Positions 1 through 18,668 of a stretch of DNA of 22,518 bases are shown here, in pieces. The DNA comes from Giardia intestinalis. Its lineage: Eukaryota. The DNA lies in the NCBI GenBank assembly GCA_000002435.2, contig AACB03000010.1; one strand, 5' to 3'. Numbering within the stretch: position 1 is the stretch's first letter; every line of letters starts with the position of its first letter. The position numbers and the translations under genes are program-made. The notes beneath the pieces are model-generated. The model had not been told where the DNA came from, ran no database searches, and saw only the letters and a program-made list of their open reading frames with translations.

Positions 1-928
1 GAGGTACCAGCGGGGCCGGCCGATGGGCACGTGCTGCCACTGCAAGCAGCCCTTCCTTCCCAGGCACCATCTGGTGTGCAAGGCCATTAACGGGATTCAC
101 GTGCGCGGCACGACAAGATTCTGGACGCCCTGCTCGCGTGCTCCCGCGGTCGCGCTGGGTCTGTTGTGCGCAATCCCACGATCCCAGTGGATCACCTCCA
201 GCCTGACCTTGTCATCGGTGGGGGCTTCGGGGACTTGGTGGTCACTGTCCCGTGGAGGCTGGAGCGGTCCTATGCCCTGAAGGCCGCCAAGTATCGCCCC
301 TCGTGCTCCAGGGGCGGGCGGCCCACATCCTCCCCGTCGTGGTCGGTGCTGACGGCGTCCTGCACCACCTGTCTGCGGCCGGACTCGCGTTCGCCGGCGT
401 GGACCTTGCGCGCTTCATGCAGGAGGCGGCGCAGGTCATCCTCTGGCACTACAGGCTGTCGGCCCTCCTGTACGCTGGGCTGCGAGTGGGAGAGGCCGGT
501 GGCACCGCCCCGCCCCTGCAGTATCCCTGCCGGAACCGGCTCCCAACGAGGCTCGGGCTACTCCTCCTACTCCCCTCACCCCTGCCATGTGGAGCCCTGG
601 CACGTCGCCCTCCGTAGAGATCATGGCCGATCTCAGCCAGCATCCTGATGCGGCAGTCCCTCCTCCCTGGGGTCCTGCTGAGGTCTCCTCCTCGATCACC
701 TGGGGCACCGATCACCCCGCACAGCCGGATGCAAACGAACGCCCAGACCCCTTCATGTGCTCAAGGGCCCCCTCCCCGCCTCCACTGGATGACGACAGCC
801 CCGACGATGCAGGAGCACCCGAGCCGGTGCACAAGGCCCTGCCGTCCTTCTTCAAGCGCGTCGGTCCTCCCAAGCCGCATGCCCCTGATGGCTTCTACCC
901 CTTCAAACGCATCGACACGGGGCGCTAG
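1..928 (+). pseudogene. 3' fragment of the RT/REL-endonuclease ORF. It aligns to 7797..8723 of the full copy. It is truncated by the window start and interrupted by several 1-bp homopolymer indels, so the ORF track shows it broken into three reading frames (23..280, 166..648, 587..928).
   Basis: Near-identical to the C-terminal CCHC/PD-(D/E)xK region and tail of the 1109-aa ORF. Indels are seen at ~124 (g missing), ~295 (c missing) and ~487-500 (extra g's) relative to copy 7797..8723. The stop TAG at 926-928 is conserved. Confidence 0.8.
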
Positions 929-2283
929 TGGTCATGCTTGGGCACCCTGCCCGCTGTCGGCTGCCCCACAGCGCGAACGGACCCCTGGGCCTGCGTGCCG
1001 AGCTGTCTCCCCTGGTACTCCTCGCTCGCACCCGAGGCCTCTTGCCCCTATCATTCGGGTGTGCATCACGTCCAGACACGGTGCGATAGATGCCTAGCCG
1101 CGATGCCATACACACTCGACCAGGCCGGGCCAGGCCGGACGCCCCCCTGGATGGCCAGACACCCGCCCTGCCTACGTTTGGGCACTTCCTCGATGGGACT
1201 CGTCATCTGCCCACGCCGCAGCCCGGTGTTCGTCTGTCTGTCCTCCCGGGCAGCGGCGGTCCTTGGGTGCTGAGTCTGGCGAGCTGGTGCTGGGGGAAGA
1301 GGCTAGCCCCGTGTGTCATTCGTACCATCGCACCGCGCCGTGCTGATCCCCCCATGGAACTGCCCGCCAGTGGCCGCCTCCGGTCCGGGGCGGCACAGCC
1401 CTGGCTCGGGCCATCCTCTGCTGCAGCGCCCCGGTGCCCCCTGGAGAGGATGGCCGGGTGCTATGTGCTACTGAGCCCTCGGGTGCATCGCTTCCCCACT
1501 GCCCCCCCTCATGTACCCACTCTGGGCGCCCCGGTACAGGGAACCTGGTCACTCTGGCCCTGGCCTCCAGGTGCTTGCCCTCCAATGGGCCATCCCTCAT
1601 GCGCCTGTGTTTGCCTGGCCCATTCTCCCCTGCTCCTCTCTACCTCTCCTGCTCGGTCTCCGCTGAGTCGCGGTGACGGCTGTTGACAGTCCCGGCCGGG
1701 CCCCCAGGTTTCGCTCCATACCTGGGCCACATGCCTCCCACCAGCGCTGGCACCACATGGGTTGCTTGTCACAGATGGGACTGGCACGCACAGAAGAATA
1801 TGGCTCCACGGCGCTCTGCCGGTCTGTCCTGAGCTGGCGTCATCAGCCTGGACCCGCCCTTAGGGGGCCTCCTCCATCACCCGTGCCTCCCCACACCACC
1901 TCCTAAGCCGTCAGTCTGCTCTCTCAGGCGTGACCTTCTGTCGGCCTCCTGGGCCGTATGGGACCACCGCCCCGCTGCCCCCGCCATCTTGGCCAGACGC
2001 CTCCGGTGAGCCACCATTCTGGAATAGCACGACACGTGTGGATGGGCTAGCTATGGCGCACGGTCCGCACCCTCCCTTCTCACGGACTCCCGGGGACAGT
2101 CCGGACGCGTCTCCCTTGTCCCCGAATCGGTGGCCCCGGCCGATCCCCATCGTGCATCCTTATATGGGGCACTGCACACACCTGTCCACGCTGTCCCCTT
2201 GGGCCGGCCACAGCTCACCCCGTGTGTCGATGGGCCAGAATTTGGGCTCCCCAAACCCCTCCACCCCAAGCTGTTTCCTCGCC
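929..2283 (+). other. Unique ~1.36-kb non-coding region downstream of the ORF, degenerate copy (candidate 3' UTR segment).
   Basis: Colinear with 8724..10080 and 14200..15556. It contains only short P/R/G-rich ORFs typical of GC-rich non-coding DNA. It has two homopolymer indels relative to the interior copies. Confidence 0.6.
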
Positions 2284-5200
2284 GGTTCTCTGGGCTCGCG
2301 CTTCCCTTTTTAGTGCAACAGCATTATGGTGCCTCGCGTATGTGCGCGGTGCAGTGGGCCGGTCTGTAGGCCTGCCTTTGACTGGAATCCTGGATCCCTG
2401 GGTTTCTGGCCCGACGCGTCGTCTTCTACCCCCCAAACAGGCCTGCACTCTTCTTGGTCCACGGGCTATTTGTCTCTTTGTTTCCGCGGCCCAGGGCCTG
2501 CTGGTTGCGCCGGGGCGACGCTCATGGTGGATTTTATTTTTTCCAAATCCAGAATTTGGGCCTGAAGACCGCCCCCGCAGGGCCTGGAGGATGCGGGGAA
2601 TCGGTCCACCCACACCATGCGCTCGAGCAAAGGCCAAGCACCCACGCCATCACGTCTCATCCAGGACTCCTGCGCCGCCACGGAGGAGGATCGGCACCTT
2701 CGCCATCGATCCTCCAGGATGCCCCCTACCACTCCCCCTCACATGGCACGCCTCCCTCGGGCCTGTATGTCTGCATGCCGCTATGCCCTAACACCGCAGG
2801 CCGCCCTCTCCGCGGATCCACTAACACACAGCCTGCAGCGCCTGGCCCCCTGGCCGTGACCCGCGCGCCCCCGCGCACAGGAGCATACCCCTGGAGCTGG
2901 GGAGAAGGCCCCCCTGGCCGCGCCCCCGCCGCGAGACCACGCGGGCACGGGGCTGGGCGCCCCGGGCGGGCCCTTCCCCTCCGTCGTGAGGCTGCCTCCC
3001 CTCCAATGTCCTTACCGCCTTGCGCGCATATTACGTAGTAAACCGCCTCTGTCTGGTTCTCTGGGCTCGCGCTTCCCTTTTTAGTGCAACAGCATTATGG
3101 TGCCTCGCGTATGTGCGCGGTGCAGTGGGCCGGTCTGTAGGCCTGCCTTTGACTGGAATCCTGGATCCCTGGGTTTCTGGCCCGACGCGTCGTCTTCTAC
3201 CCCCCAAACAGGCCTGCACTCTTCTTGGTCCACGGGCTATTTGTCTCTTTGTTTCCGCGGCCCAGGGCCTGCTGGTTGCGCCGGGGCGACGCTCATGGTG
3301 GATTTTATTTTTTCCAAAATCCAGAATTTGGGCCTGAAGACCGCCCCCGCAGGGCCTGGAGGATGCGGGGAATCGGTCCACCCACACCATGCGCTCGAGC
3401 AAAGGCCAAGCACCCACGCCATCACGTCTCATCCAGGACTCCTGCGCCGCCACGGAGGAGGATCGGCACCTTCGCCATCGATCCTCCAGGATGCCCCCCT
3501 ACCACTCCCCCTCACATGGCACGCCTCCCTCGGGCCTGTATGTCTGCATGCCGCTATGCCCTAACACCGCAGGCCGCCCTCTCCGCGGATCCACTAACAC
3601 ACAGCCTGCAGCGCCTGGCCCCCCTGGCCGTGACCCGCGCGCCCCCGCGCACAGGAGCATACCCCTGGAGCTGGGGAGAAGGCCCCCCTGGCCGCGCCCC
3701 CGCCGCGAGACCACGCGGGCACGGGGGCTGGGCGCCCCGGGCGGGCCCTTCCCCTCCGTCGTGAGGCTGCCTCCCCTCCAATGTCCTTACCGCCTTGCGC
3801 GCATATTACGTAGTAAACCGCCTCTGTCTGGTTCTCTGGGCTCGCGCTTCCCTTTTTAGTGCAACAGCATTATGGTGCCTCGCGTATGTGCGCGGTGCAG
3901 TGGGCCGGTCTGTAGGCCTGCCTTTGACTGGAATCCTGGATCCCTGGGTTTCTGGCCCGACGCGTCGTCTTCTACCCCCCAAACAGGCCTGCACTCTTCT
4001 TGGTCCACGGGCTATTTGTCTCTTTGTTTCCGCGGCCCAGGGCCTGCTGGTTGCGCCGGGGCGACGCTCATGGTGGATTTTATTTTTTCCAAAATCCAGA
4101 ATTTGGGCCTGAAGACCGCCCCCGCAGGGCCTGGAGGATGCGGGGAATCGGTCCACCCACACCATGCGCTCGAGCAAAGGCCAAGCACCCACGCCATCAC
4201 GTCTCATCCAGGACTCCTGCGCCGCCACGGAGGAGGATCGGCACCTTCGCCATCGATCCTCCAGGATGCCCCCCTACCACTCCCCCTCACATGGCACGCC
4301 TCCCTCGGGCCTGTATGTCTGCATGCCGCTATGCCCTAACACCGCAGGCCGCCCTCTCCGCGGATCCACTAACACACAGCCTGCAGCGCCTGGCCCCCCT
4401 GGCCGTGACCCGCGCGCCCCCGCGCACAGGAGCATACCCCTGGAGCTGGGGAGAAGGCCCCCCTGGCCGCGCCCCCGCCGCGAGACCACGCGGGCACGGG
4501 GGCTGGGCGCCCCGGGCGGGCCCTTCCCCTCCGTCGTGAGGCTGCCTCCCCTCCAATGTCCTTACCGCCTTGCGCGCATATTACGTAGTAAACCGCCTCT
4601 GTCTGGTTCTCTGGGCTCGCGCTTCCCTTTTTAGTGCAACAGCATTATGGTGCCTCGCGTATGTGCGCGGTGCAGTGGGCCGGTCTGTAGGCCTGCCTTT
4701 GACTGGAATCCTGGATCCCTGGGTTTCTGGCCCGACGCGTCGTCTTCTACCCCCCAAACAGGCCTGCACTCTTCTTGGTCCACGGGCTATTTGTCTCTTT
4801 GTTTCCGCGGCCCAGGGCCTGCTGGTTGCGCCGGGGCGACGCTCATGGTGGATTTTATTTTTTCCAAAATCCAGAATTTGGGCCTGAAGACCGCCCCCGC
4901 AGGGCCTGGAGGATGCGGGGAATCGGTCCACCCACACCATGCGCTCGAGCAAAGGCCAAGCACCCACGCCATCACGTCTCATCCAGGACTCCTGCGCCGC
5001 CACGGAGGAGGATCGGCACCTTCGCCATCGATCCTCCAGGATGCCCCCCTACCACTCCCCCTCACATGGCACGCCTCCCTCGGGCCTGTATGTCTGCATG
5101 CCGCTATGCCCTAACACCGCAGGCCGCCCTCTCCGCGGATCCACTAACACACAGCCTGCAGCGCCTGGCCCCCCTGGCCGTGACCCGCGCGCCCCCGCGC

Positions 5201-5372
5201 ACAGGAGCATACCCCTGGAGCTGGGGAGAAGGCCCCCCTGGCCGCGCCCCCGCCGCGAGACCACGCGGGCACGGGGGCTGGGCGCCCCGGGCGGGCCCTT
5301 CCCCTCCGTCGTGAGGCTGCCTCCCCTCCAATGTCCTTACCGCCTTGCGCGCATATTACGTAGTAAACCGCC
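2284..5372 (+). repeat. Tandem array of four 775-bp monomers. The units are 2284-3054 (771 bp with 4 homopolymer deletions), 3055-3829, 3830-4604 and 4605-5372 (the terminal unit, lacking the last 7 bp 'tctgtct').
   Basis: Exact 775-bp periodicity is seen in identical strings and in the ORF-track repeats at 3020/3795/4570. Each unit starts 'ggttctctgggctcgcgcttccc' and ends 'cgcgcatattacgtagtaaaccgcc' + 'tctgtct'. Confidence 0.95.
5362..5367 (+). promoter_or_regulatory. AGTAAA hexamer (a poly(A)-signal variant; it also fits the AGTRAAY consensus as AGTAAAC), 8 nt upstream of the A16 tract.
   Basis: The sequence reads 'tacgtAGTAAAccgcccct(a)16'. The same hexamer ends every 775-bp monomer. It is a known functional variant of AATAAA, and its position fits a cleavage/polyadenylation site. 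Confidence 0.45.
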
Positions 5373-5375
5373 CCT

Positions 5376-5391
5376 AAAAAAAAAAAAAAAA
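5376..5391 (+). other. Pure A16 tract. It is either the poly(A) tail of the upstream element or an A-rich initiator located 2 nt upstream of the ATG.
   Basis: Homopolymer of 16 A between 'taaaccgcccct' and 'ccATG'. The length is identical at all three unit junctions. Confidence 0.9.
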
Positions 5392-5393
5392 CC

Positions 5394-8300
5394 ATGCGTT
5401 CCGCCCTTTCCGCGCCTTCGGGAACCACGGAGATCGGGGCTTCCTCAGGCCCAGAGCCTCCCAACCACGCTCCAACCGACTCCCACAGGCCCCTACCTAG
5501 GGGCACTCCCGATCCTATGACGCTGGGTGACGGCAACGATGCCTCGACGACCGCCATGGCCCGGCCTTCCTCTTGCGAGCCCCTCTGCGGCTCCCACGGG
5601 CCCCCATCCCCCCAGCCTGGGCCTGGCAACAGCCGTTCCGCCACGGACAACTCTCCCAATGAGTCTTCTCCTGTCCATGGCTTACAGGGCTCCGGGGCCT
5701 CGGTGGCCCGGGACGCCTCTCCTCCCTGCCTGTCGAACGACCTTCTGCCCTGTGGCCAGGAGCCCCTCCCGATTCCCGACGACGGCCTCCCATACGACCT
5801 GGGCCACGACAACTCCCCGTCCATCACGGACGAGCAGGAGGCCCGGGGCGCAGACCTGCCTGCTCCTGGGGGCCGTACGACTGTCTGCGAGCGCTGCGGA
5901 GAGGTGCTGCCTGACTCTGCGGCGATCGATGTCCACATCGGGATGCACCATCCGCCTCCCGGTTCACCTTCTCCGTCGCGCAGCCCTTCTCCGCTGTCGG
6001 GGTCTGCCCCTCCACCTGCAGCCGCCGAGCCCTCTCCCTCGCCAACGCCGGACCCTGTGTTCCCGTATGCATGCAGCATGTGCCGGGCCCGATACAAAAC
6101 GGAGAGGGGGCTGAAGGCCCATATCGCCAGGCTCGGCCACTACCTCCCGCTCGACGCCACAGTCCCCGAGCGCATCGGGGTGCCTAGTGGCAGCCCGTCC
6201 CCTGAGCTGCTTCGCCTCCTCACTGACGTATTCACAGAGATGGCGGGGCGCCTTCCTCCTGTAGAGGCCCTAGCGCGCTTCCTCTCGACGTGCCGCCGCA
6301 TGGAGGGCTCTGGACGGCTCCCCCCGGCGCAGTCGCTTCTCCGGAAGGGGCTGCTCGGCCGGGCATGGCAGGCGCTGTTGAGCGAGACGTCCTCTGCCGC
6401 CAGGGTCCCCGAGCCCCAGGGCAAGGAGCGGGAAGCGATTGTCCATGAGCTCCACCCGCGCCCCATGCCTGTCTCTCTGCCCCCCGTCCATCACGTGCTC
6501 GGCCCGTCGCCCAAGATAACGGCCAAGGCGCTGCTGAAGGAGCTGCAGGCGATGAGGCCTGTCGCGGCCGGACCCTCTGGGCTGGGGAAGCCTCACCTCC
6601 TGCACCTTTGTGGGGCCGCCGGGGCTGCGGAGCTCTTCACCTCTGTCCTGACGACCCTCTTCTCCAGCAGGAACTGGGCCCAGCTCCAGCCCCTGTGCGA
6701 GTTCAGGCTGAAGCTTCTGCCCAAGTCTGGCGGCCGATGGCGCCCTATCGCAGTGCAGGAGACGCTTCTGGTCGCCTTCCACCGCTTGCTCCTGCGTCGG
6801 ACTCCCGCGCTCCGCAAGCTCCCGGCGTGGCAGCTGGCCTTTGAGCACCTCGCCCAGATGAAGGCGATCCGCGCGGCCGAGGAGCTGAAGAGGACACACC
6901 ACCTGCTCACGGTGGATGTGCGGAATGCCTTCAACAGCGTCCCGCATTCCGTCATCCTCTTTGCGCTCCGCCGGGCAGGGGTGGTCCAGCCGACCGTCGC
7001 GTACATTGAGTCGTTCCTCGCGGCTCGGCACTCCTCGGACCTCCCCGCGGTCCCAGCGGGCGTGCCACAGGGGGACCCGCTGTCCATGGCGATGTTCTGC
7101 CAGAGCCTTGTCTGGCCGGTGGAGACGTACCTCGGCCAGTACAAGGTCGTTGCATACGCCGACGACCTCGTCATTGCGTCAGAGGAGGCGATTCCCATAG
7201 ATACCGTGAAGAGTGACGCGCAGTCTGCCCTCTCCCGCATAGGGCTCACGGTCGAGCTCTCGAAGTGCTCCTCGACCCAGGCCGGGGCGATCTCCTTCAT
7301 GGGCACCCGCGTGCTCAAGCACTCCTCCTTCAACCTCGCGCAGACATCGGCCCGCCGGCTCCACGAGCATCTCGCCGTCCTCCGTGCTTCGGGTCTCTCA
7401 CTCCACGACCGCCTCAGGCTCCTGTCTGCCTGCGTCGTCCCTGCAGTTAACTATGGACCCCTTGTTGACGACTACCCGGGCCCGTCCCCCTATGCCGACG
7501 TCGATGCGCAGATAGTGGAGGAGGTCGCGACCCTTCTGGAGATCCCCGAACCCCTTGCGAAGACCCTTGCTCTGACGCCCCGCGCGAAGTACGGCCTCGG
7601 ACTGGTGCTGCCCCATCACTACTACGACGAGATGCACAGGCAGCGCCAGGACATGAAGGCGGGCGTCTTCCGCGAGCTGAGGAAGAAGCGCCTGCAGGAC
7701 ACGGCCGCGCTCCGATCCTTCCTGCCGCTCGCATTGCTGGGCTGCGCACCCCTGGACAACACGCAGGTCCTGTTCATAGGGGACTGCTTGGCGGGGAGGT
7801 ACCAGCGGGGCCGGCCGATGGGCACGTGCTGCCACTGCAAGCAGCCCTTCCTTCCCAGGCACCATCTGGTGTGCAAGGCCATTAACGGGATTCACGTGGC
7901 GCGGCACGACAAGATTCTGGACGCCCTGCTCGCGTGCTCCCGCGGTCGCGCTGGGTCTGTTGTGCGCAATCCCACGATCCCAGTGGATCACCTCCAGCCT
8001 GACCTTGTCATCGGTGGGGGCTTCGGGGACTTGGTGGTCACTGTCCCGTGGAGGCTGGAGCGGTCCTATGCCCTGAAGGCCGCCAAGTATCGCCCCCTCG
8101 TGCTCCAGGGGCGGGCGGCCCACATCCTCCCCGTCGTGGTCGGTGCTGACGGCGTCCTGCACCACCTGTCTGCGGCCGGACTCGCGTTCGCCGGCGTGGA
8201 CCTTGCGCGCTTCATGCAGGAGGCGGCGCAGGTCATCCTCTGGCACTACAGGCTGTCGGCCCTCCTGTACGCTGGGCTGCGAGTGGAGAGGCCGGTGCAC

Positions 8301-8723
8301 CGCCCCGCCCCTGCAGTATCCCTGCCGGAACCGGCTCCCAACGAGGCTCGGGCTACTCCTCCTACTCCCCTCACCCCTGCCATGTGGAGCCCTGGCACGT
8401 CGCCCTCCGTAGAGATCATGGCCGATCTCAGCCAGCATCCTGATGCGGCAGTCCCTCCTCCCTGGGGTCCTGCTGAGGTCTCCTCCTCGATCACCTGGGG
8501 CACCGATCACCCCGCACAGCCGGATGCAAACGAACGCCCAGACCCCTTCATGTGCTCAAGGGCCCCCTCCCCGCCTCCACTGGATGACGACAGCCCCGAC
8601 GATGCAGGAGCACCCGAGCCGGTGCACAAGGCCCTGCCGTCCTTCTTCAAGCGCGTCGGTCCTCCCAAGCCGCATGCCCCTGATGGCTTCTACCCCTTCA
8701 AACGCATCGACACGGGGCGCTAG
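5394..8723 (+). CDS. Non-LTR retrotransposon polyprotein (1109 aa). It has an N-terminal S/P-rich region, 2x C2H2 zinc finger, reverse transcriptase, a CCHC motif and a REL (PD-(D/E)xK) endonuclease. The C-terminal ~150 aa is a P-rich extension.
   Basis: Intact RT motifs are present: LPKSGGRWRPIAV (motifs 1/2), LLTVDVRNAFNSVPH (A), AGVPQGDPLSMAMF (B'), VVAYADDLVIAS (C, YADD at 7155..7166), LTVELSKCS (D). CCHC 'CCHCKQPFLPRHHLVC' is followed by 'RHDKIL'. The endonuclease segment reads 'QPDLVIGGGFGDLVVTVPWRLERSYALKAAKY', matching the R2-type PDLV...D-V-T-V...K..KY pattern. The ATG sits immediately after the A16 tract. Antisense ORFs are low-complexity. Confidence 0.9.
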   Translation: MRSALSAPSGTTEIGASSGPEPPNHAPTDSHRPLPRGTPDPMTLGDGNDASTTAMARPSSCEPLCGSHGPPSPQPGPGNSRSATDNSPNESSPVHGLQGSGASVARDASPPCLSNDLLPCGQEPLPIPDDGLPYDLGHDNSPSITDEQEARGADLPAPGGRTTVCERCGEVLPDSAAIDVHIGMHHPPPGSPSPSRSPSPLSGSAPPPAAAEPSPSPTPDPVFPYACSMCRARYKTERGLKAHIARLGHYLPLDATVPERIGVPSGSPSPELLRLLTDVFTEMAGRLPPVEALARFLSTCRRMEGSGRLPPAQSLLRKGLLGRAWQALLSETSSAARVPEPQGKEREAIVHELHPRPMPVSLPPVHHVLGPSPKITAKALLKELQAMRPVAAGPSGLGKPHLLHLCGAAGAAELFTSVLTTLFSSRNWAQLQPLCEFRLKLLPKSGGRWRPIAVQETLLVAFHRLLLRRTPALRKLPAWQLAFEHLAQMKAIRAAEELKRTHHLLTVDVRNAFNSVPHSVILFALRRAGVVQPTVAYIESFLAARHSSDLPAVPAGVPQGDPLSMAMFCQSLVWPVETYLGQYKVVAYADDLVIASEEAIPIDTVKSDAQSALSRIGLTVELSKCSSTQAGAISFMGTRVLKHSSFNLAQTSARRLHEHLAVLRASGLSLHDRLRLLSACVVPAVNYGPLVDDYPGPSPYADVDAQIVEEVATLLEIPEPLAKTLALTPRAKYGLGLVLPHHYYDEMHRQRQDMKAGVFRELRKKRLQDTAALRSFLPLALLGCAPLDNTQVLFIGDCLAGRYQRGRPMGTCCHCKQPFLPRHHLVCKAINGIHVARHDKILDALLACSRGRAGSVVRNPTIPVDHLQPDLVIGGGFGDLVVTVPWRLERSYALKAAKYRPLVLQGRAAHILPVVVGADGVLHHLSAAGLAFAGVDLARFMQEAAQVILWHYRLSALLYAGLRVERPVHRPAPAVSLPEPAPNEARATPPTPLTPAMWSPGTSPSVEIMADLSQHPDAAVPPPWGPAEVSSSITWGTDHPAQPDANERPDPFMCSRAPSPPPLDDDSPDDAGAPEPVHKALPSFFKRVGPPKPHAPDGFYPFKRIDTGR
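5886..5952 (+). other. C2H2 zinc finger 1 (C-x2-C-x12-H-x3-H): CERCGEVLPDSAAIDVHIGMHH.
   Basis: Spacing of the Cys/His residues in the translated ORF. Confidence 0.75.
6072..6140 (+). other. C2H2 zinc finger 2 (C-x2-C-x12-H-x5-H): CSMCRARYKTERGLKAHIARLGH.
   Basis: Spacing of the Cys/His residues. It is separated from ZF1 by an SP-rich linker (SPSPSRSPSPLSGS...). Confidence 0.7.
6700..7320 (+). other. Reverse-transcriptase core (motifs 1 to E).
   Basis: LPK at 6717-6725, YADD at 7155-7166, FMGTRV at 7296-7313. Confidence 0.85.
7827..8090 (+). other. CCHC zinc motif plus restriction-enzyme-like (PD-(D/E)xK) endonuclease domain.
   Basis: tgc tgc cac tgc at 7827-7838, PD at 7998-8003, D of 'GDLVVTV' at 8028-8030, K..KY at ~8076-8090. 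Confidence 0.8.
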
Positions 8724-10080
8724 TGGTCATGCTTGGGCACCCTGCCCGCTGTCGGCTGCCCCACAGCGCGAACGGACCCCTGGGCCTGCGTGCCGAGCTG
8801 TCTCCCCTGGTACTCCTCGCTCGCACCCGAGGCCTCTTGCCCCTATCATTCGGGTGTGCATCACGTCCAGACACGGTGCGATAGATGCCTAGCCGCGATG
8901 CCATACACACTCGACCAGGCCGGGCCAGGCCGGACGCCCCCCTGGATGGCCAGACACCCGCCCTGCCTACGTTTGGGCACTTCCTCGATGGGACTCGTCA
9001 TCTGCCCACGCCGCAGCCCGGTGTTCGTCTGTCTGTCCTCCCGGGCAGCGGCGGTCCTTGGGTGCTGAGTCTGGCGAGCTGGTGCTGGGGGAAGAGGCTA
9101 GCCCCGTGTGTCATTCGTACCATCGCACCGCGCCGTGCTGATCCCCCCATGGAACTGCCCGCCAGTGGCCGCCTCCGGTCCGGGGCGGCACAGCCCTGGC
9201 TCGGGCCATCCTCTGCTGCAGCGCCCCGGTGCCCCCTGGAGAGGATGGCCGGGTGCTATGTGCTACTGAGCCCTCGGGTGCATCGCTTCCCCACTGCCCC
9301 CCCTCATGTACCCACTCTGGGCGCCCCGGTACAGGGAACCTGGTCACTCTGGCCCTGGCCTCCAGGTGCTTGCCCTCCAATGGGCCATCCCTCATGCGCC
9401 TGTGTTTGCCTGGCCCATTCTCCCCTGCTCCTCTCTACCTCTCCTGCTCGGTCTCCGCTGAGTCGCGGTGACGGCTGTTGACAGTCCCGGCCGGGCCCCC
9501 AGGTTTCGCTCCATACCTGGGCCACATGCCTCCCACCAGCGCTGGCACCACATGGGTTGCTTGTCACAGATGGGACTGGCACGCACAGAAGAATATGGCT
9601 CCACGGCGCTCTGCCGGTCTGTCCTGAGCTGGCGTCATCAGCCTGGACCCGCCCTTAGGGGGCCTCCTCCATCACCCGTGCCTCCCCACACCACCTCCTA
9701 AGCCGTCAGTCTGCTCTCTCAGGCGTGACCTTCTGTCGGCCTCCTGGGCCGTATGGGACCACCGCCCCGCTGCCCCCGCCATCTTGGCCAGACGCCTCCG
9801 GTGAGCCACCATTCTGGAATAGCACGACACGTGTGGATGGGCTAGCTATGGCGCACGGTCCGCACCCTCCCTTCTCACGGACTCCCGGGGACAGTCCGGA
9901 CGCGTCTCCCTTGTCCCCCGAATCGGTGGCCCCGGCCGATCCCCATCGTGCATCCTTATATGGGGCACTGCACACACCTGTCCACGCTGTCCCCTTGGGC
10001 CGGCCACAGCTCACCCCGTGTGTCGATGGGCCAGAATTTGGGCTCCCCAAACCCCTCCACCCCCAAGCTGTTTCCTCGCC
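8724..10080 (+). other. Unique 1357-bp non-coding region following the ORF stop (candidate 3' UTR). It ends '...ccaagctgtttcctcgcc' immediately before the first monomer.
   Basis: Conserved in all units. It has no convincing coding potential. The ORFs in it (e.g. 8885..9481) are P/G/R-rich and out of frame with the RT. Confidence 0.65.
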
Positions 10081-10848
10081 GGTTCTCTGGGCTCGCGCTT
10101 CCCTTTTTAGTGCAACAGCATTATGGTGCCTCGCGTATGTGCGCGGTGCAGTGGGCCGGTCTGTAGGCCTGCCTTTGACTGGAATCCTGGATCCCTGGGT
10201 TTCTGGCCCGACGCGTCGTCTTCTACCCCCCAAACAGGCCTGCACTCTTCTTGGTCCACGGGCTATTTGTCTCTTTGTTTCCGCGGCCCAGGGCCTGCTG
10301 GTTGCGCCGGGGCGACGCTCATGGTGGATTTTATTTTTTCCAAAATCCAGAATTTGGGCCTGAAGACCGCCCCCGCAGGGCCTGGAGGATGCGGGGAATC
10401 GGTCCACCCACACCATGCGCTCGAGCAAAGGCCAAGCACCCACGCCATCACGTCTCATCCAGGACTCCTGCGCCGCCACGGAGGAGGATCGGCACCTTCG
10501 CCATCGATCCTCCAGGATGCCCCCCTACCACTCCCCCTCACATGGCACGCCTCCCTCGGGCCTGTATGTCTGCATGCCGCTATGCCCTAACACCGCAGGC
10601 CGCCCTCTCCGCGGATCCACTAACACACAGCCTGCAGCGCCTGGCCCCCCTGGCCGTGACCCGCGCGCCCCCGCGCACAGGAGCATACCCCTGGAGCTGG
10701 GGAGAAGGCCCCCCTGGCCGCGCCCCCGCCGCGAGACCACGCGGGCACGGGGGCTGGGCGCCCCGGGCGGGCCCTTCCCCTCCGTCGTGAGGCTGCCTCC
10801 CCTCCAATGTCCTTACCGCCTTGCGCGCATATTACGTAGTAAACCGCC
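10081..10848 (+). repeat. Single (terminal-type, 768-bp) copy of the 775-bp monomer.
   Basis: Identical to the terminal monomers 4605-5372 and 17882-18649. Confidence 0.95.
10838..10843 (+). promoter_or_regulatory. AGTAAA poly(A)-signal-like hexamer, 8 nt before the A16 tract.
   Basis: Same context as 5362-5367. Confidence 0.45.
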
Positions 10849-10851
10849 CCT

Positions 10852-10867
10852 AAAAAAAAAAAAAAAA
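10852..10867 (+). other. A16 tract at the unit junction.
   Basis: 16 A's, followed by 'cc' and then ATG at 10870. Confidence 0.9.
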
Positions 10868-10869
10868 CC

Positions 10870-13800
10870 ATGCGTTCCGCCCTTTCCGCGCCTTCGGGAA
10901 CCACGGAGATCGGGGCTTCCTCAGGCCCAGAGCCTCCCAACCACGCTCCAACCGACTCCCACAGGCCCCTACCTAGGGGCACTCCCGATCCTATGACGCT
11001 GGGTGACGGCAACGATGCCTCGACGACCGCCATGGCCCGGCCTTCCTCTTGCGAGCCCCTCTGCGGCTCCCACGGGCCCCCATCCCCCCAGCCTGGGCCT
11101 GGCAACAGCCGTTCCGCCACGGACAACTCTCCCAATGAGTCTTCTCCTGTCCATGGCTTACAGGGCTCCGGGGCCTCGGTGGCCCGGGACGCCTCTCCTC
11201 CCTGCCTGTCGAACGACCTTCTGCCCTGTGGCCAGGAGCCCCTCCCGATTCCCGACGACGGCCTCCCATACGACCTGGGCCACGACAACTCCCCGTCCAT
11301 CACGGACGAGCAGGAGGCCCGGGGCGCAGACCTGCCTGCTCCTGGGGGCCGTACGACTGTCTGCGAGCGCTGCGGAGAGGTGCTGCCTGACTCTGCGGCG
11401 ATCGATGTCCACATCGGGATGCACCATCCGCCTCCCGGTTCACCTTCTCCGTCGCGCAGCCCTTCTCCGCTGTCGGGGTCTGCCCCTCCACCTGCAGCCG
11501 CCGAGCCCTCTCCCTCGCCAACGCCGGACCCTGTGTTCCCGTATGCATGCAGCATGTGCCGGGCCCGATACAAAACGGAGAGGGGGCTGAAGGCCCATAT
11601 CGCCAGGCTCGGCCACTACCTCCCGCTCGACGCCACAGTCCCCGAGCGCATCGGGGTGCCTAGTGGCAGCCCGTCCCCTGAGCTGCTTCGCCTCCTCACT
11701 GACGTATTCACAGAGATGGCGGGGCGCCTTCCTCCTGTAGAGGCCCTAGCGCGCTTCCTCTCGACGTGCCGCCGCATGGAGGGCTCTGGACGGCTCCCCC
11801 CGGCGCAGTCGCTTCTCCGGAAGGGGCTGCTCGGCCGGGCATGGCAGGCGCTGTTGAGCGAGACGTCCTCTGCCGCCAGGGTCCCCGAGCCCCAGGGCAA
11901 GGAGCGGGAAGCGATTGTCCATGAGCTCCACCCGCGCCCCATGCCTGTCTCTCTGCCCCCCGTCCATCACGTGCTCGGCCCGTCGCCCAAGATAACGGCC
12001 AAGGCGCTGCTGAAGGAGCTGCAGGCGATGAGGCCTGTCGCGGCCGGACCCTCTGGGCTGGGGAAGCCTCACCTCCTGCACCTTTGTGGGGCCGCCGGGG
12101 CTGCGGAGCTCTTCACCTCTGTCCTGACGACCCTCTTCTCCAGCAGGAACTGGGCCCAGCTCCAGCCCCTGTGCGAGTTCAGGCTGAAGCTTCTGCCCAA
12201 GTCTGGCGGCCGATGGCGCCCTATCGCAGTGCAGGAGACGCTTCTGGTCGCCTTCCACCGCTTGCTCCTGCGTCGGACTCCCGCGCTCCGCAAGCTCCCG
12301 GCGTGGCAGCTGGCCTTTGAGCACCTCGCCCAGATGAAGGCGATCCGCGCGGCCGAGGAGCTGAAGAGGACACACCACCTGCTCACGGTGGATGTGCGGA
12401 ATGCCTTCAACAGCGTCCCGCATTCCGTCATCCTCTTTGCGCTCCGCCGGGCAGGGGTGGTCCAGCCGACCGTCGCGTACATTGAGTCGTTCCTCGCGGC
12501 TCGGCACTCCTCGGACCTCCCCGCGGTCCCAGCGGGCGTGCCACAGGGGGACCCGCTGTCCATGGCGATGTTCTGCCAGAGCCTTGTCTGGCCGGTGGAG
12601 ACGTACCTCGGCCAGTACAAGGTCGTTGCATACGCCGACGACCTCGTCATTGCGTCAGAGGAGGCGATTCCCATAGATACCGTGAAGAGTGACGCGCAGT
12701 CTGCCCTCTCCCGCATAGGGCTCACGGTCGAGCTCTCGAAGTGCTCCTCGACCCAGGCCGGGGCGATCTCCTTCATGGGCACCCGCGTGCTCAAGCACTC
12801 CTCCTTCAACCTCGCGCAGACATCGGCCCGCCGGCTCCACGAGCATCTCGCCGTCCTCCGTGCTTCGGGTCTCTCACTCCACGACCGCCTCAGGCTCCTG
12901 TCTGCCTGCGTCGTCCCTGCAGTTAACTATGGACCCCTTGTTGACGACTACCCGGGCCCGTCCCCCTATGCCGACGTCGATGCGCAGATAGTGGAGGAGG
13001 TCGCGACCCTTCTGGAGATCCCCGAACCCCTTGCGAAGACCCTTGCTCTGACGCCCCGCGCGAAGTACGGCCTCGGACTGGTGCTGCCCCATCACTACTA
13101 CGACGAGATGCACAGGCAGCGCCAGGACATGAAGGCGGGCGTCTTCCGCGAGCTGAGGAAGAAGCGCCTGCAGGACACGGCCGCGCTCCGATCCTTCCTG
13201 CCGCTCGCATTGCTGGGCTGCGCACCCCTGGACAACACGCAGGTCCTGTTCATAGGGGACTGCTTGGCGGGGAGGTACCAGCGGGGCCGGCCGATGGGCA
13301 CGTGCTGCCACTGCAAGCAGCCCTTCCTTCCCAGGCACCATCTGGTGTGCAAGGCCATTAACGGGATTCACGTGGCGCGGCACGACAAGATTCTGGACGC
13401 CCTGCTCGCGTGCTCCCGCGGTCGCGCTGGGTCTGTTGTGCGCAATCCCACGATCCCAGTGGATCACCTCCAGCCTGACCTTGTCATCGGTGGGGGCTTC
13501 GGGGACTTGGTGGTCACTGTCCCGTGGAGGCTGGAGCGGTCCTATGCCCTGAAGGCCGCCAAGTATCGCCCCCTCGTGCTCCAGGGGCGGGCGGCCCACA
13601 TCCTCCCCGTCGTGGTCGGTGCTGACGGCGTCCTGCACCACCTGTCTGCGGCCGGACTCGCGTTCGCCGGCGTGGACCTTGCGCGCTTCATGCAGGAGGC
13701 GGCGCAGGTCATCCTCTGGCACTACAGGCTGTCGGCCCTCCTGTACGCTGGGCTGCGAGTGGAGAGGCCGGTGCACCGCCCCGCCCCTGCAGTATCCCTG

Positions 13801-14199
13801 CCGGAACCGGCTCCCAACGAGGCTCGGGCTACTCCTCCTACTCCCCTCACCCCTGCCATGTGGAGCCCTGGCACGTCGCCCTCCGTAGAGATCATGGCCG
13901 ATCTCAGCCAGCATCCTGATGCGGCAGTCCCTCCTCCCTGGGGTCCTGCTGAGGTCTCCTCCTCGATCACCTGGGGCACCGATCACCCCGCACAGCCGGA
14001 TGCAAACGAACGCCCAGACCCCTTCATGTGCTCAAGGGCCCCCTCCCCGCCTCCACTGGATGACGACAGCCCCGACGATGCAGGAGCACCCGAGCCGGTG
14101 CACAAGGCCCTGCCGTCCTTCTTCAAGCGCGTCGGTCCTCCCAAGCCGCATGCCCCTGATGGCTTCTACCCCTTCAAACGCATCGACACGGGGCGCTAG
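10870..14199 (+). CDS. Non-LTR retrotransposon RT/REL-endonuclease polyprotein, second full copy (1109 aa, identical translation).
   Basis: The ORF-track protein is identical to 5394..8723. All overlapping alternative-frame ORFs are also identical, implying nucleotide identity. Confidence 0.9.
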   Translation: MRSALSAPSGTTEIGASSGPEPPNHAPTDSHRPLPRGTPDPMTLGDGNDASTTAMARPSSCEPLCGSHGPPSPQPGPGNSRSATDNSPNESSPVHGLQGSGASVARDASPPCLSNDLLPCGQEPLPIPDDGLPYDLGHDNSPSITDEQEARGADLPAPGGRTTVCERCGEVLPDSAAIDVHIGMHHPPPGSPSPSRSPSPLSGSAPPPAAAEPSPSPTPDPVFPYACSMCRARYKTERGLKAHIARLGHYLPLDATVPERIGVPSGSPSPELLRLLTDVFTEMAGRLPPVEALARFLSTCRRMEGSGRLPPAQSLLRKGLLGRAWQALLSETSSAARVPEPQGKEREAIVHELHPRPMPVSLPPVHHVLGPSPKITAKALLKELQAMRPVAAGPSGLGKPHLLHLCGAAGAAELFTSVLTTLFSSRNWAQLQPLCEFRLKLLPKSGGRWRPIAVQETLLVAFHRLLLRRTPALRKLPAWQLAFEHLAQMKAIRAAEELKRTHHLLTVDVRNAFNSVPHSVILFALRRAGVVQPTVAYIESFLAARHSSDLPAVPAGVPQGDPLSMAMFCQSLVWPVETYLGQYKVVAYADDLVIASEEAIPIDTVKSDAQSALSRIGLTVELSKCSSTQAGAISFMGTRVLKHSSFNLAQTSARRLHEHLAVLRASGLSLHDRLRLLSACVVPAVNYGPLVDDYPGPSPYADVDAQIVEEVATLLEIPEPLAKTLALTPRAKYGLGLVLPHHYYDEMHRQRQDMKAGVFRELRKKRLQDTAALRSFLPLALLGCAPLDNTQVLFIGDCLAGRYQRGRPMGTCCHCKQPFLPRHHLVCKAINGIHVARHDKILDALLACSRGRAGSVVRNPTIPVDHLQPDLVIGGGFGDLVVTVPWRLERSYALKAAKYRPLVLQGRAAHILPVVVGADGVLHHLSAAGLAFAGVDLARFMQEAAQVILWHYRLSALLYAGLRVERPVHRPAPAVSLPEPAPNEARATPPTPLTPAMWSPGTSPSVEIMADLSQHPDAAVPPPWGPAEVSSSITWGTDHPAQPDANERPDPFMCSRAPSPPPLDDDSPDDAGAPEPVHKALPSFFKRVGPPKPHAPDGFYPFKRIDTGR

Positions 14200-15556
14200 T
14201 GGTCATGCTTGGGCACCCTGCCCGCTGTCGGCTGCCCCACAGCGCGAACGGACCCCTGGGCCTGCGTGCCGAGCTGTCTCCCCTGGTACTCCTCGCTCGC
14301 ACCCGAGGCCTCTTGCCCCTATCATTCGGGTGTGCATCACGTCCAGACACGGTGCGATAGATGCCTAGCCGCGATGCCATACACACTCGACCAGGCCGGG
14401 CCAGGCCGGACGCCCCCCTGGATGGCCAGACACCCGCCCTGCCTACGTTTGGGCACTTCCTCGATGGGACTCGTCATCTGCCCACGCCGCAGCCCGGTGT
14501 TCGTCTGTCTGTCCTCCCGGGCAGCGGCGGTCCTTGGGTGCTGAGTCTGGCGAGCTGGTGCTGGGGGAAGAGGCTAGCCCCGTGTGTCATTCGTACCATC
14601 GCACCGCGCCGTGCTGATCCCCCCATGGAACTGCCCGCCAGTGGCCGCCTCCGGTCCGGGGCGGCACAGCCCTGGCTCGGGCCATCCTCTGCTGCAGCGC
14701 CCCGGTGCCCCCTGGAGAGGATGGCCGGGTGCTATGTGCTACTGAGCCCTCGGGTGCATCGCTTCCCCACTGCCCCCCCTCATGTACCCACTCTGGGCGC
14801 CCCGGTACAGGGAACCTGGTCACTCTGGCCCTGGCCTCCAGGTGCTTGCCCTCCAATGGGCCATCCCTCATGCGCCTGTGTTTGCCTGGCCCATTCTCCC
14901 CTGCTCCTCTCTACCTCTCCTGCTCGGTCTCCGCTGAGTCGCGGTGACGGCTGTTGACAGTCCCGGCCGGGCCCCCAGGTTTCGCTCCATACCTGGGCCA
15001 CATGCCTCCCACCAGCGCTGGCACCACATGGGTTGCTTGTCACAGATGGGACTGGCACGCACAGAAGAATATGGCTCCACGGCGCTCTGCCGGTCTGTCC
15101 TGAGCTGGCGTCATCAGCCTGGACCCGCCCTTAGGGGGCCTCCTCCATCACCCGTGCCTCCCCACACCACCTCCTAAGCCGTCAGTCTGCTCTCTCAGGC
15201 GTGACCTTCTGTCGGCCTCCTGGGCCGTATGGGACCACCGCCCCGCTGCCCCCGCCATCTTGGCCAGACGCCTCCGGTGAGCCACCATTCTGGAATAGCA
15301 CGACACGTGTGGATGGGCTAGCTATGGCGCACGGTCCGCACCCTCCCTTCTCACGGACTCCCGGGGACAGTCCGGACGCGTCTCCCTTGTCCCCCGAATC
15401 GGTGGCCCCGGCCGATCCCCATCGTGCATCCTTATATGGGGCACTGCACACACCTGTCCACGCTGTCCCCTTGGGCCGGCCACAGCTCACCCCGTGTGTC
15501 GATGGGCCAGAATTTGGGCTCCCCAAACCCCTCCACCCCCAAGCTGTTTCCTCGCC
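14200..15556 (+). other. Unique ~1.36-kb post-ORF region (candidate 3' UTR), copy 2.
   Basis: Identical to 8724..10080. Confidence 0.65.
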
Positions 15557-18500
15557 GGTTCTCTGGGCTCGCGCTTCCCTTTTTAGTGCAACAGCATTAT
15601 GGTGCCTCGCGTATGTGCGCGGTGCAGTGGGCCGGTCTGTAGGCCTGCCTTTGACTGGAATCCTGGATCCCTGGGTTTCTGGCCCGACGCGTCGTCTTCT
15701 ACCCCCCAAACAGGCCTGCACTCTTCTTGGTCCACGGGCTATTTGTCTCTTTGTTTCCGCGGCCCAGGGCCTGCTGGTTGCGCCGGGGCGACGCTCATGG
15801 TGGATTTTATTTTTTCCAAAATCCAGAATTTGGGCCTGAAGACCGCCCCCGCAGGGCCTGGAGGATGCGGGGAATCGGTCCACCCACACCATGCGCTCGA
15901 GCAAAGGCCAAGCACCCACGCCATCACGTCTCATCCAGGACTCCTGCGCCGCCACGGAGGAGGATCGGCACCTTCGCCATCGATCCTCCAGGATGCCCCC
16001 CTACCACTCCCCCTCACATGGCACGCCTCCCTCGGGCCTGTATGTCTGCATGCCGCTATGCCCTAACACCGCAGGCCGCCCTCTCCGCGGATCCACTAAC
16101 ACACAGCCTGCAGCGCCTGGCCCCCCTGGCCGTGACCCGCGCGCCCCCGCGCACAGGAGCATACCCCTGGAGCTGGGGAGAAGGCCCCCCTGGCCGCGCC
16201 CCCGCCGCGAGACCACGCGGGCACGGGGGCTGGGCGCCCCGGGCGGGCCCTTCCCCTCCGTCGTGAGGCTGCCTCCCCTCCAATGTCCTTACCGCCTTGC
16301 GCGCATATTACGTAGTAAACCGCCTCTGTCTGGTTCTCTGGGCTCGCGCTTCCCTTTTTAGTGCAACAGCATTATGGTGCCTCGCGTATGTGCGCGGTGC
16401 AGTGGGCCGGTCTGTAGGCCTGCCTTTGACTGGAATCCTGGATCCCTGGGTTTCTGGCCCGACGCGTCGTCTTCTACCCCCCAAACAGGCCTGCACTCTT
16501 CTTGGTCCACGGGCTATTTGTCTCTTTGTTTCCGCGGCCCAGGGCCTGCTGGTTGCGCCGGGGCGACGCTCATGGTGGATTTTATTTTTTCCAAAATCCA
16601 GAATTTGGGCCTGAAGACCGCCCCCGCAGGGCCTGGAGGATGCGGGGAATCGGTCCACCCACACCATGCGCTCGAGCAAAGGCCAAGCACCCACGCCATC
16701 ACGTCTCATCCAGGACTCCTGCGCCGCCACGGAGGAGGATCGGCACCTTCGCCATCGATCCTCCAGGATGCCCCCCTACCACTCCCCCTCACATGGCACG
16801 CCTCCCTCGGGCCTGTATGTCTGCATGCCGCTATGCCCTAACACCGCAGGCCGCCCTCTCCGCGGATCCACTAACACACAGCCTGCAGCGCCTGGCCCCC
16901 CTGGCCGTGACCCGCGCGCCCCCGCGCACAGGAGCATACCCCTGGAGCTGGGGAGAAGGCCCCCCTGGCCGCGCCCCCGCCGCGAGACCACGCGGGCACG
17001 GGGGCTGGGCGCCCCGGGCGGGCCCTTCCCCTCCGTCGTGAGGCTGCCTCCCCTCCAATGTCCTTACCGCCTTGCGCGCATATTACGTAGTAAACCGCCT
17101 CTGTCTGGTTCTCTGGGCTCGCGCTTCCCTTTTTAGTGCAACAGCATTATGGTGCCTCGCGTATGTGCGCGGTGCAGTGGGCCGGTCTGTAGGCCTGCCT
17201 TTGACTGGAATCCTGGATCCCTGGGTTTCTGGCCCGACGCGTCGTCTTCTACCCCCCAAACAGGCCTGCACTCTTCTTGGTCCACGGGCTATTTGTCTCT
17301 TTGTTTCCGCGGCCCAGGGCCTGCTGGTTGCGCCGGGGCGACGCTCATGGTGGATTTTATTTTTTCCAAAATCCAGAATTTGGGCCTGAAGACCGCCCCC
17401 GCAGGGCCTGGAGGATGCGGGGAATCGGTCCACCCACACCATGCGCTCGAGCAAAGGCCAAGCACCCACGCCATCACGTCTCATCCAGGACTCCTGCGCC
17501 GCCACGGAGGAGGATCGGCACCTTCGCCATCGATCCTCCAGGATGCCCCCCTACCACTCCCCCTCACATGGCACGCCTCCCTCGGGCCTGTATGTCTGCA
17601 TGCCGCTATGCCCTAACACCGCAGGCCGCCCTCTCCGCGGATCCACTAACACACAGCCTGCAGCGCCTGGCCCCCCTGGCCGTGACCCGCGCGCCCCCGC
17701 GCACAGGAGCATACCCCTGGAGCTGGGGAGAAGGCCCCCCTGGCCGCGCCCCCGCCGCGAGACCACGCGGGCACGGGGGCTGGGCGCCCCGGGCGGGCCC
17801 TTCCCCTCCGTCGTGAGGCTGCCTCCCCTCCAATGTCCTTACCGCCTTGCGCGCATATTACGTAGTAAACCGCCTCTGTCTGGTTCTCTGGGCTCGCGCT
17901 TCCCTTTTTAGTGCAACAGCATTATGGTGCCTCGCGTATGTGCGCGGTGCAGTGGGCCGGTCTGTAGGCCTGCCTTTGACTGGAATCCTGGATCCCTGGG
18001 TTTCTGGCCCGACGCGTCGTCTTCTACCCCCCAAACAGGCCTGCACTCTTCTTGGTCCACGGGCTATTTGTCTCTTTGTTTCCGCGGCCCAGGGCCTGCT
18101 GGTTGCGCCGGGGCGACGCTCATGGTGGATTTTATTTTTTCCAAAATCCAGAATTTGGGCCTGAAGACCGCCCCCGCAGGGCCTGGAGGATGCGGGGAAT
18201 CGGTCCACCCACACCATGCGCTCGAGCAAAGGCCAAGCACCCACGCCATCACGTCTCATCCAGGACTCCTGCGCCGCCACGGAGGAGGATCGGCACCTTC
18301 GCCATCGATCCTCCAGGATGCCCCCCTACCACTCCCCCTCACATGGCACGCCTCCCTCGGGCCTGTATGTCTGCATGCCGCTATGCCCTAACACCGCAGG
18401 CCGCCCTCTCCGCGGATCCACTAACACACAGCCTGCAGCGCCTGGCCCCCCTGGCCGTGACCCGCGCGCCCCCGCGCACAGGAGCATACCCCTGGAGCTG

Positions 18501-18649
18501 GGGAGAAGGCCCCCCTGGCCGCGCCCCCGCCGCGAGACCACGCGGGCACGGGGGCTGGGCGCCCCGGGCGGGCCCTTCCCCTCCGTCGTGAGGCTGCCTC
18601 CCCTCCAATGTCCTTACCGCCTTGCGCGCATATTACGTAGTAAACCGCC
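15557..18649 (+). repeat. Tandem array of four 775-bp monomers: 15557-16331, 16332-17106, 17107-17881 and 17882-18649 (terminal, 768 bp).
   Basis: Exact periodicity. ORF-track repeats are seen at 16297/17072/17847. Confidence 0.95.
18639..18644 (+). promoter_or_regulatory. AGTAAA poly(A)-signal-like hexamer, 8 nt before the A16 tract.
   Basis: Same context as the other junctions. Confidence 0.45.
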
Positions 18650-18652
18650 CCT

Positions 18653-18668
18653 AAAAAAAAAAAAAAAA
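18653..18668 (+). other. A16 tract at the unit junction.
   Basis: 16 A's, followed by 'cc' and then ATG at 18671. Confidence 0.9.

Follow-up and report, generated by a model that had tools for sequence, protein, structure and literature searches.

A 775-bp tandem monomer as the probable terminal module of the 3' untranslated region of a Giardia retrotransposon

The locus analysed here, a stretch of 22,518 nucleotides (the window) from Giardia duodenalis WB, is a head-to-tail array of one non-LTR (long terminal repeat) retrotransposon with 67% G+C. Each unit of the array consists, in order, of cc-ATG, an open reading frame (ORF) of 1109 aa, a unique tail of 1357 bp, n copies of a 775-bp monomer and a run of sixteen adenines (A16), with n = 4, 1 and 4; these monomer counts, read from the letters in an initial annotation of the window, are borne out by the mapped coordinates. 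The annotation had left three readings of the monomers side by side, namely a repeated part of the element's 3' untranslated region (UTR), promoter monomers of the downstream ORF, or a host satellite. Our analysis indicates that the monomer is in all likelihood the terminal module of the element's own long 3' UTR, tandemly duplicated in this family.

The array and the element it is built of

The joints of the array are uniform. At 6/6 interior junctions the monomer end aaaccgcc is followed by the 7-bp linker tctgtct and then by ggttctc; in 3/3 arrays the terminal monomer ends with aaaccgcc and cct, followed by exactly A16 and then cc-ATG; and the passage from the unique tail into the first monomer, cctcgcc to ggttctctggg, is common to 3/3 units, all as first annotated. 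The unit with one monomer (unit 1, 5392-10867) has a period of 5476 bp. Tandem Repeats Finder, used for periods up to 500 only, reported no repeat, the 775-bp period lying beyond that range.

The ORF is 100% identical to the G. duodenalis WB reverse transcriptase/endonuclease KAE8301202-4, and AAL47180.1, deposited by Arkhipova and Morrison in 2001, falls into the same 90% cluster. Every unit has this single ORF, with C2H2 zinc fingers at its N-terminus and a Pfam RVT_1 domain at residues 443-639 of the 1109 (E = 3.8e-21). Beyond the reverse transcriptase, inspection of a nine-lineage protein alignment revealed the invariant motifs C..C..RHHL.C, HVARH, LQPD and GDLV..PW...LK..KY, which suggest that the C-terminus comprises a CCHC motif and a restriction-like endonuclease of the PD..D..K type, an assignment made from the motifs in a region where no Pfam model lies. 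The Genie1 primers given in PMC1950533 match the window ORF at 6650-6669 and 6952-6971; together with the ORF identity to the WB annotation, this proves correct the earlier guess that the window belongs to the GilM/GilT/Genie-1 system. The amplicon region of these primers (6650-6971) falls within the ORF, outside the monomers, and Chen et al. 2007, the source of the primers, report Mg-dependent self-cleavage of double-stranded RNA of the amplified region (PMC1950533). An Rfam search of the whole unit at E<=1 returned no family, and hence no known ribozyme or R2 3' UTR element.

Xu et al. 2020 report a 5,474-bp GilM copy, present approximately four times at the 5' end of chromosome 5, and their read depth implies at least nine GilM copies (PMC7000408). 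Judged by its sequence, the window is the known array of GilM / Genie 1, an element described as telomere-associated, with the one-monomer unit (5476 bp) corresponding to the 5,474-bp GilM copy. Ullu et al. 2005 are said to have equated GilT with Genie 1, which clashes with the naming used by Xu et al. The system is thus already known and not a new kind, and its arrangement has been in the literature since 2001-2002, where it has been taken either for a long 3' UTR or for insertion into a chromosomal repeat. The two published accounts differ over the nature of the ~771-bp repeat at this Giardia locus, element sequence in one and host DNA in the other: Arkhipova and Morrison, as summarised by Casacuberta 2017, described head-to-tail arrays with unusually long 3' UTRs (PMC5537684), and Burke et al. 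2002, as quoted in PMC1950533, took the repeat for the chromosomal target of site-specific insertion.

The monomer end and the 3' terminus of the element RNA

The Giardia poly(A) signal is AGURAA, with AGUAAA the commonest form, and lies mostly 13-15 nt ahead of the cleavage site (PMC9014877). On the sense strand of the 5476-nt unit, AGTAAA occurs once (0.13 expected from composition) and AGTGAA does not occur (0.26 expected), so that the only sense-strand AGTRAA of a one-monomer unit is the one at the monomer end, with the start of the motif 14 nt before the A tract. The longer form AGTAAAC, which the initial annotation had placed near the monomer end, is present there in 9/9 monomers. Since no poly(A) signal follows the stop codon until the end of the first monomer is reached, the ORF transcript must take in at least one monomer. 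On the other side of the A tract, the in-frame stop taa (5364-5366) upstream of the ATG lies inside AGTAAA and closes the upstream frame, so the leader of the ORF is at most the A tract plus cc, consistent with the very short 5' UTRs of Giardia (PMC1885649).

Across the window and 14 further loci, with at least nine diverged relatives among them, 15 distinct junctions share one layout: AGTAAA, 14-16 nt from the start of the motif to the A tract, a tract of A6-A16, then cc, ccc or cca, then ATG. The 3' ends of the same element differ among isolates (…cgcccct+A16, …cgcctctgt+A16, …cgcctctg+A13 and …cctctctc+A6), and tail lengths and addition sites that vary in this manner are as would be expected of poly(A) tails. 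The position of the A tract is the one expected for an added poly(A) tail. Because the signal and the tract intervene between the monomers and the following ORF, the monomers belong to the upstream transcript. The position of the sole sense-strand AGTAAA thereby upholds the first of the annotated readings, a 3' UTR repeat in which transcripts might terminate after any monomer.

To place the monomer in a wider context, we fetched, from further isolates and assemblages and from metagenome assemblies, 19 loci with the element or its relatives. The assemblage E orthologue (isolate P15, locus L015) keeps the unique-to-monomer junction and is identical to WB at 90.6% of the ORF, 84% of the unique UTR and 86% of the monomer; between assemblages A and E, the monomer and the remaining UTR have changed at a similar pace. 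In at least seven further lineages (L011, L012, L014, L016-L019) ORF identity is ~65-70% for DNA and 52-63% for protein, and an assemblage B contig (L013) adds one junction to this diverged set. The diverged lineages are also arranged head to tail, with a period of 5.1-6.2 kb and a 3' UTR of 1.7-2.7 kb, and no internal monomer repeat was seen in the 3' UTRs of these seven loci. Their 3' UTRs cannot be aligned to the WB element save for one block, equivalent to monomer positions ~539-775 (72-86% identity), and this block, the last ~235 nt of the monomer, directly abuts the poly(A) in every diverged lineage examined. Because the same terminal block precedes poly(A) across lineages, the conserved part of the monomer forms the 3' terminus of the element's RNA. 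The end of the unique region (…cctcgcc) lacks poly(A), a poly(A) signal and conservation across lineages, each of which the monomer end possesses.

These data bear directly on the account of the repeat as a host satellite, according to which Genie 1 (A16-cc-ORF-unique, ~4.7 kb) inserted site-specifically into a 771/775-bp chromosomal repeat and replaced tctgtct. In its favour are the uninterrupted runs of up to four monomers between elements, the restriction-like endonuclease, which is typical of site-specific non-LTR elements, and the few bases of the interior junction that are absent from both 'insertion' junctions, as after a small target deletion. Against it, such an insert would have its A tract at the 5' end and a 3' end with neither poly(A) nor a signal, and the sole poly(A) signal would reside inside the 'target', 14 nt ahead of the A tract. 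In all diverged lineages, single-copy ones that lack a separate repeat among them, what stands before poly(A) is the terminal block of this 'target'. The sequence conserved across lineages is the monomer end, whereas the 3' recognition sequence of an inserted element would be expected where the unique region stops, and the monomer (86%) diverged in step with the unique UTR (84%) between assemblages A and E. On the evidence of the window and the fetched loci, we consider the satellite account, which was also among those of the initial annotation and is disfavoured by the terminal block standing directly before poly(A) in every diverged lineage, to be very unlikely.

Within the conserved block, alignment of the last 250 nt before poly(A) from eight lineages (alignment A1) contains a 93-nt core that is near-invariant, although the ORFs of these lineages share only ~65-70% DNA identity. 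RNAalifold folds the core into a long stem-loop and a small hairpin. Standard pairing is present in 98.6% of A1 cells, compared with 41-61% when the partners are slid by 1-3 columns, and compensatory GC to AU changes are seen at three pairs (six cells), with the apical stem reading CCGCG…CGCGG or CCACA…TGTGG depending on the lineage. Where only one partner of a pair changes in the long stem-loop (helices 1-3), a G-U wobble is kept in every case, which points to the sense RNA strand. The very high G+C of the core weakens the structural evidence, which we regard as no more than moderate. Two metagenome scans with the invariant core as the query gave no match.

In R2-type elements, the RNA of the 3' UTR is recognised by the reverse transcriptase. 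By likeness to R2, the stem-loop may be the site recognised by the reverse transcriptase of the Giardia element. In the mechanism that we propose, a transcript would run from the A tract or cc through the ORF and the unique UTR and would be cleaved and polyadenylated 14-16 nt after a monomer-end AGUAAA, so that retrotransposed copies would end in a monomer and A(n); the stem-loop, which precedes the poly(A) site by 60-150 nt, would be bound by the element's own reverse transcriptase for target-primed reverse transcription, as in R2-type elements.

Table 1 Positions of the array features in the window
Feature	Position	Strand	Remarks
Unit 0 ORF, 3' part (reverse transcriptase/endonuclease)	1-928	+	1-nt homopolymer indels are the sole cause of frame breaks
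Unit 0 proximal 3' UTR, single-copy	929-2283	+	
Unit 0 probable distal 3' UTR module, 4 monomers (771, 775, 775, 771 bp)	2284-5375	+	
Unit 0 individual monomers	2284-3054, 3055-3829, 3830-4604, 4605-5375	+	
Conserved monomer core, long stem-loop and small hairpin	5224-5316	+	Candidate reverse-transcriptase recognition element; 93-nt core starts: 3674, 4449, 5224, 10700 (10700-10792), 16176, 16951, 17726, 18501
AGTAAA poly(A) signal at monomer end	5362-5367	+	One per monomer; AGTAAAC starts: 3037, 3812, 4587, 5362, 10838, 16314, 17089, 17864, 18639
A16, putative genomic remnant of the unit 0 poly(A) tail	5376-5391	+	Further A16 tracts at 10852-10867 and 18653-18668; each then cc-ATG
Unit 1, 2-nt leader cc and 1109-aa ORF	5392-8723 (ORF 5394-8723)	+	
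Unit 1 proximal 3' UTR, unique, 1357 bp	8724-10080	+	Noncoding, without poly(A) signal
Unit 1 single monomer	10081-10851	+	
AT-rich island 1, monomer positions ~22-44	10103-10125	not assigned	Candidate cryptic/bidirectional promoter patch
AT-rich island 2, monomer positions ~236-276	10317-10357	not assigned	
Unit 2, cc and ORF	10868-14199 (ORF 10870-14199)	+	Same sequence as unit 1
Unit 2 proximal 3' UTR, unique	14200-15556	+	
Unit 2 array, 4 monomers (775, 775, 775, 771 bp)	15557-18652	+	
Unit 2 individual monomers	15557-16331, 16332-17106, 17107-17881, 17882-18652	+	
Unit 3, cc and ORF	18669-22000 (ORF 18671-22000)	+	
Unit 3 unique 3' UTR, beginning only	22001-22518	+	Homopolymer indels near window end

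A coding role for the monomer was considered and rejected: monomer ORFs have no Pfam match, none is in the protein collection, and indels relative to P15 disrupt their frames. Public collections list, from 50 contigs, a predicted protein for an ORF of 198 aa in the unique 3' UTR (8885-9481). No Pfam model matches it, many frame-breaking indels relative to P15 occur across the region, and the ORF is probably spurious, lying in noncoding sequence rich in G+C.

The metagenome or run assemblies among the fetched loci (L016-L019, from ENA and Logan) have the same architecture on contigs of 66-73% G+C, and the relatives together indicate that the diversity of the family exceeds that of the two telomeric elements named so far. 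Assemblage B is represented by a contig (L013; GS, AHHH01000009, 1-13000) with two degenerate copies at its end, facing RING-finger and VSP genes; a conserved junction, agtaaattaccctt-A7-cccATG, is located at ~7223, and the innermost copy is without a recognisable 3' block. A subtelomeric location would suit the copies at this contig end and the WB copies, which Xu et al. place at the 5' end of chromosome 5 (PMC7000408). Telomere repeats, sought in the window and in the fetched loci, were not found.

Promoter material, monomer number and reality of the array

Giardia core promoters are bidirectional and consist of a degenerate AT-rich patch at the start site and a second such patch ~30 bp upstream; initiation also takes place at cryptic AT-rich patches (PMC1885649). 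In the whole unit, all 20-nt windows with at least 65% A+T lie within the monomer, where the three AT-rich islands described initially were found again along with a weaker fourth. A block at 10281-10380 (monomer ~201-300), around island 2 (gattttattttttccaaaatccagaatttggg), has 92-94% identity between assemblages A and E, compared with 83% for the whole monomer and, apart from AGTAAA, only 54-66% for its last 75 nt. This block is a candidate for an internal promoter or for some other function, and the internal AT islands may be the source of sense and antisense transcripts behind the retroposon small RNAs that have been reported.

At the downstream end of the monomers, an A tract occupies -18 to -3 before every ORF of the array, and the 30 nt ahead of each A tract contain 47-60% A+T, in loci with 27-36% A+T overall. 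From this match in layout, the last ~45 bp of the monomer, together with the A tract, could act on the downstream copy as a core promoter of the Giardia type, with A16 also serving as the AT-rich initiator patch of the next ORF. The AT-rich monomer end, ~30 bp upstream, and the A tract, as the start site, would then be 'promoting in tandem' in the manner of HeT-A. What this retains of the annotated idea of promoter monomers is a weaker, conditional role for the monomer end; monomers acting as promoters in the way of mouse L1 are not supported, with the poly(A) signal and the tract intervening before the ORF.

A more far-reaching alternative would have transcription start within the monomers of the upstream copy, as in HeT-A or mouse L1, so that new copies carry one or more monomers and A(n) at their 5' end. 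The AT-rich patches of the unit, its sole plausible Giardia promoter material, are indeed all in the monomer, and Giardia initiation is promiscuous and bidirectional at such patches (PMC1885649), but with a poly(A) signal and an A tract before the ORF, a transcript begun in a monomer should mostly be cleaved first. The 92-94% conservation of AT island 2 between assemblages would suit an internal start; the start of the monomer itself, however, lies ~20 nt upstream of an AT-rich patch, unlike mapped Giardia start sites (PMC1885649). Two heterologous junctions, at loci L001 and L015, fit a leader derived from an upstream 3' UTR, yet are explained equally well by recombination in the invariant core or by short-read or 454 mis-assembly. 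We judge a start within the upstream monomers to be unlikely. The companion idea, that a new copy landing behind the last monomer of another adds monomers without an intervening poly(A), appears similarly improbable. It is likewise doubtful that the terminal module works as a proto-LTR, providing both its own terminator and poly(A) signal and the promoter of the next copy, which would explain the count of 1-4 monomers and the junctions at L001 and L015.

The two junctions are of different kinds. In L001:3711-4500, an assemblage A short-read contig, the 3' UTR is a hybrid in which a monomer of the window family gives way, inside the invariant core and ~95 nt before poly(A), to a second family's 3' end; A11 and the ORF of the second family (ccATGgcgcctcgc…) come next. 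Possible origins are recombination within the core common to both families, template switching and a 5' leader that stems from an upstream copy. In L015:5560-6535 (P15, ACVC01000609), compared with L011:5103-6013, a monomer end, …gagtaaatcccctc, is joined without poly(A) to a foreign UTR, of which 912 nt match the terminal ~1.08 kb of the 3' UTR of another family at 99.9% identity. The join parallels the monomer-monomer junction of WB. At both, the joined module begins ~20 nt upstream of an AT-rich patch. The L015 join could also be a 454-era assembly chimera. L001 and L015 hint at recurrent poly(A)-less joining of a UTR end into another 3' UTR, with recombination or mis-assembly equally possible.

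Several observations weigh against the monomer being a 3' UTR module with a structured, transcriptionally active end that was multiplied by retrotransposition. The folding energy of the stem-loop is no better than that of shuffled sequence (z = -0.34), so that it is only the comparative counts that carry the structural claim; the compensatory changes among the eight sequences may amount to only two or three independent events. The AT-rich patch before the A tract is largely the poly(A) signal itself, and owing to this overlap its AT-richness is not independent evidence for a promoter. Also, all three A16 tracts are identical and the units are free of substitutions, which indicates that the array grew by amplification at the DNA level (unequal exchange or slippage), or was homogenised by polishing, rather than through three retrotranspositions. 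Finally, the interior junction contains 2-4 nt (..ct or ..gtct) past the observed points of poly(A) addition, so the first monomer duplication was not simply RNA-derived.

With the monomer as the end of the 3' UTR, most changes in its number (1 to 4) would come from DNA-level events, either slippage or unequal crossing-over within the array. Because each monomer has a poly(A) signal, the transcript of a multi-monomer copy can end at its first monomer and found a one-monomer copy, and use of an upstream monomer's signal would in this way reset the new copy to one. Such a reset fits the canonical unit of 5.47 kb and the collapsed short-read contigs of ~5.4-5.5 kb. Two other routes to extra monomers were set aside. 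Insertion of 5'-truncated copies between An and ccATG was rejected, as it predicts poly(A) between monomers and none was seen; insertion at the boundary of UTR end and poly(A) predicts full-length junctions without A, none of which was seen, unless transcripts start inside the A tract.

The exact counts of 4, 1 and 4 come from one long-read assembly. Between the four units the differences are 1-nt homopolymer indels only, with 0 substitutions, and they are concentrated in the first ~3 kb (1-3054) and the last ~500 bp (22000-22518) of the window. The exact repetition of the monomer that was originally described therefore holds for 8/9; the first monomer (2284-3054) has 771 bp and is four single bases short, all in homopolymer runs. 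These indels at the window ends are probably long-read consensus errors and not real variants, and the first monomer as a genuine 771-bp variant was rejected on the same ground; the paper on the WB PacBio genome concedes long-read consensus errors (PMC7000408).

The monomer-monomer junction itself is real and not an assembly artefact, because an Illumina-based contig from another run (L010) carries the full 775-bp monomer including the tctgtct linker. This bears on the possibility that the true element has one monomer and that 4/1/4 arose by mis-assembly of a repetitive subtelomeric contig. That the units are free of substitutions, with homopolymer indels only at the window ends, would agree with such an origin, as would the uncertain copy number and gaps that Xu et al. 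report in the region (PMC7000408) and the collapse of short-read assemblies into one-monomer units of ~5.4-5.5 kb. Against it, the independent L010 contig spans the 775-bp monomer together with tctgtct, a linker restricted to monomer-monomer junctions, and a tandem repeat was described by Burke et al. from Sanger data, as far as they are quoted in PMC1950533. We hold an artefactual origin of the arrays to be most improbable.

Significance and relation to known systems

The disputed reading of the repeat is now largely settled towards a module of the 3' UTR. This redraws the limits of the element, which becomes ~5.5 kb plus any extra monomers instead of ~4.7 kb; it turns the insertion 'target' into a junction made by the elements themselves; and it alters the view of how Giardia subtelomeric size variation arises. 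The stem-loop, poly(A) signal and A tract would form a compact candidate control region that couples the 3' end of one copy to the transcription of the next, a coupling that bears on the idea that these elements help to maintain Giardia chromosome ends. If the terminal module did prove to be a proto-LTR, it would represent a second, independent course along the HeT-A route towards LTR-like organisation, in a deep-branching protist and in an element with a restriction-like endonuclease.

The window shares with GilM/GilT the organism, the protein, a head-to-tail arrangement with a single orientation, an unusually long 3' UTR and a unit of 5.47 kb, and there is no essential difference between them. 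It is also like Genie 1, whose primers match the window ORF and which is interleaved with a ~771-bp repeat (here terminal monomers of 771 bp and interior ones of 775 bp); the repeat of Burke et al. 2002 is reportedly 771 bp long. Unlike the description of Genie 1, in which the repeat is a chromosomal target, the evidence from the window puts it in the element's 3' UTR.

HeT-A and TART resemble the window in their telomeric head-to-tail arrays, their very long 3' UTRs and an upstream 3' end placed to drive the downstream copy, an arrangement that Danilevskaya et al. 1997 are said to have called 'promoting in tandem' for HeT-A of Drosophila. They differ in belonging to the jockey clade, with an AP endonuclease or none, and in attaching to chromosome ends with variable 5' truncation, whereas the Giardia elements encode a restriction-like endonuclease and have exact An/ccATG junctions, and a promoter role of their 3' end is suggested here by layout. 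Mouse L1 elements of the A, TF and GF types likewise have tandem monomers in variable number beside the ORF, which hold the sole promoter-like sequence. However, those monomers are in the element's own 5' UTR, downstream of the preceding poly(A), while the Giardia monomers are the 3' UTR of the upstream copy; the order here is monomer, AGTAAA, A16, cc and ATG, which is not the mouse-L1-type layout.

We know of no independent satellite array of the Giardia monomer. Satellites derived from the UTRs of transposable elements (PMC7004042) are similar to the window in being short tandem arrays from an internal noncoding part of a retrotransposon, but the window has 1-4 copies that are kept within functional-looking elements. 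The R2, CRE and NeSL elements are like those of the window in having a single ORF, N-terminal zinc fingers, a reverse transcriptase, CCHC and PD..D..K motifs and a conserved, structured end of the 3' UTR. R2 has a target in a host gene (28S rDNA) and often no poly(A), whereas Giardia copies abut one another, and the elements themselves create the apparent 'target'.

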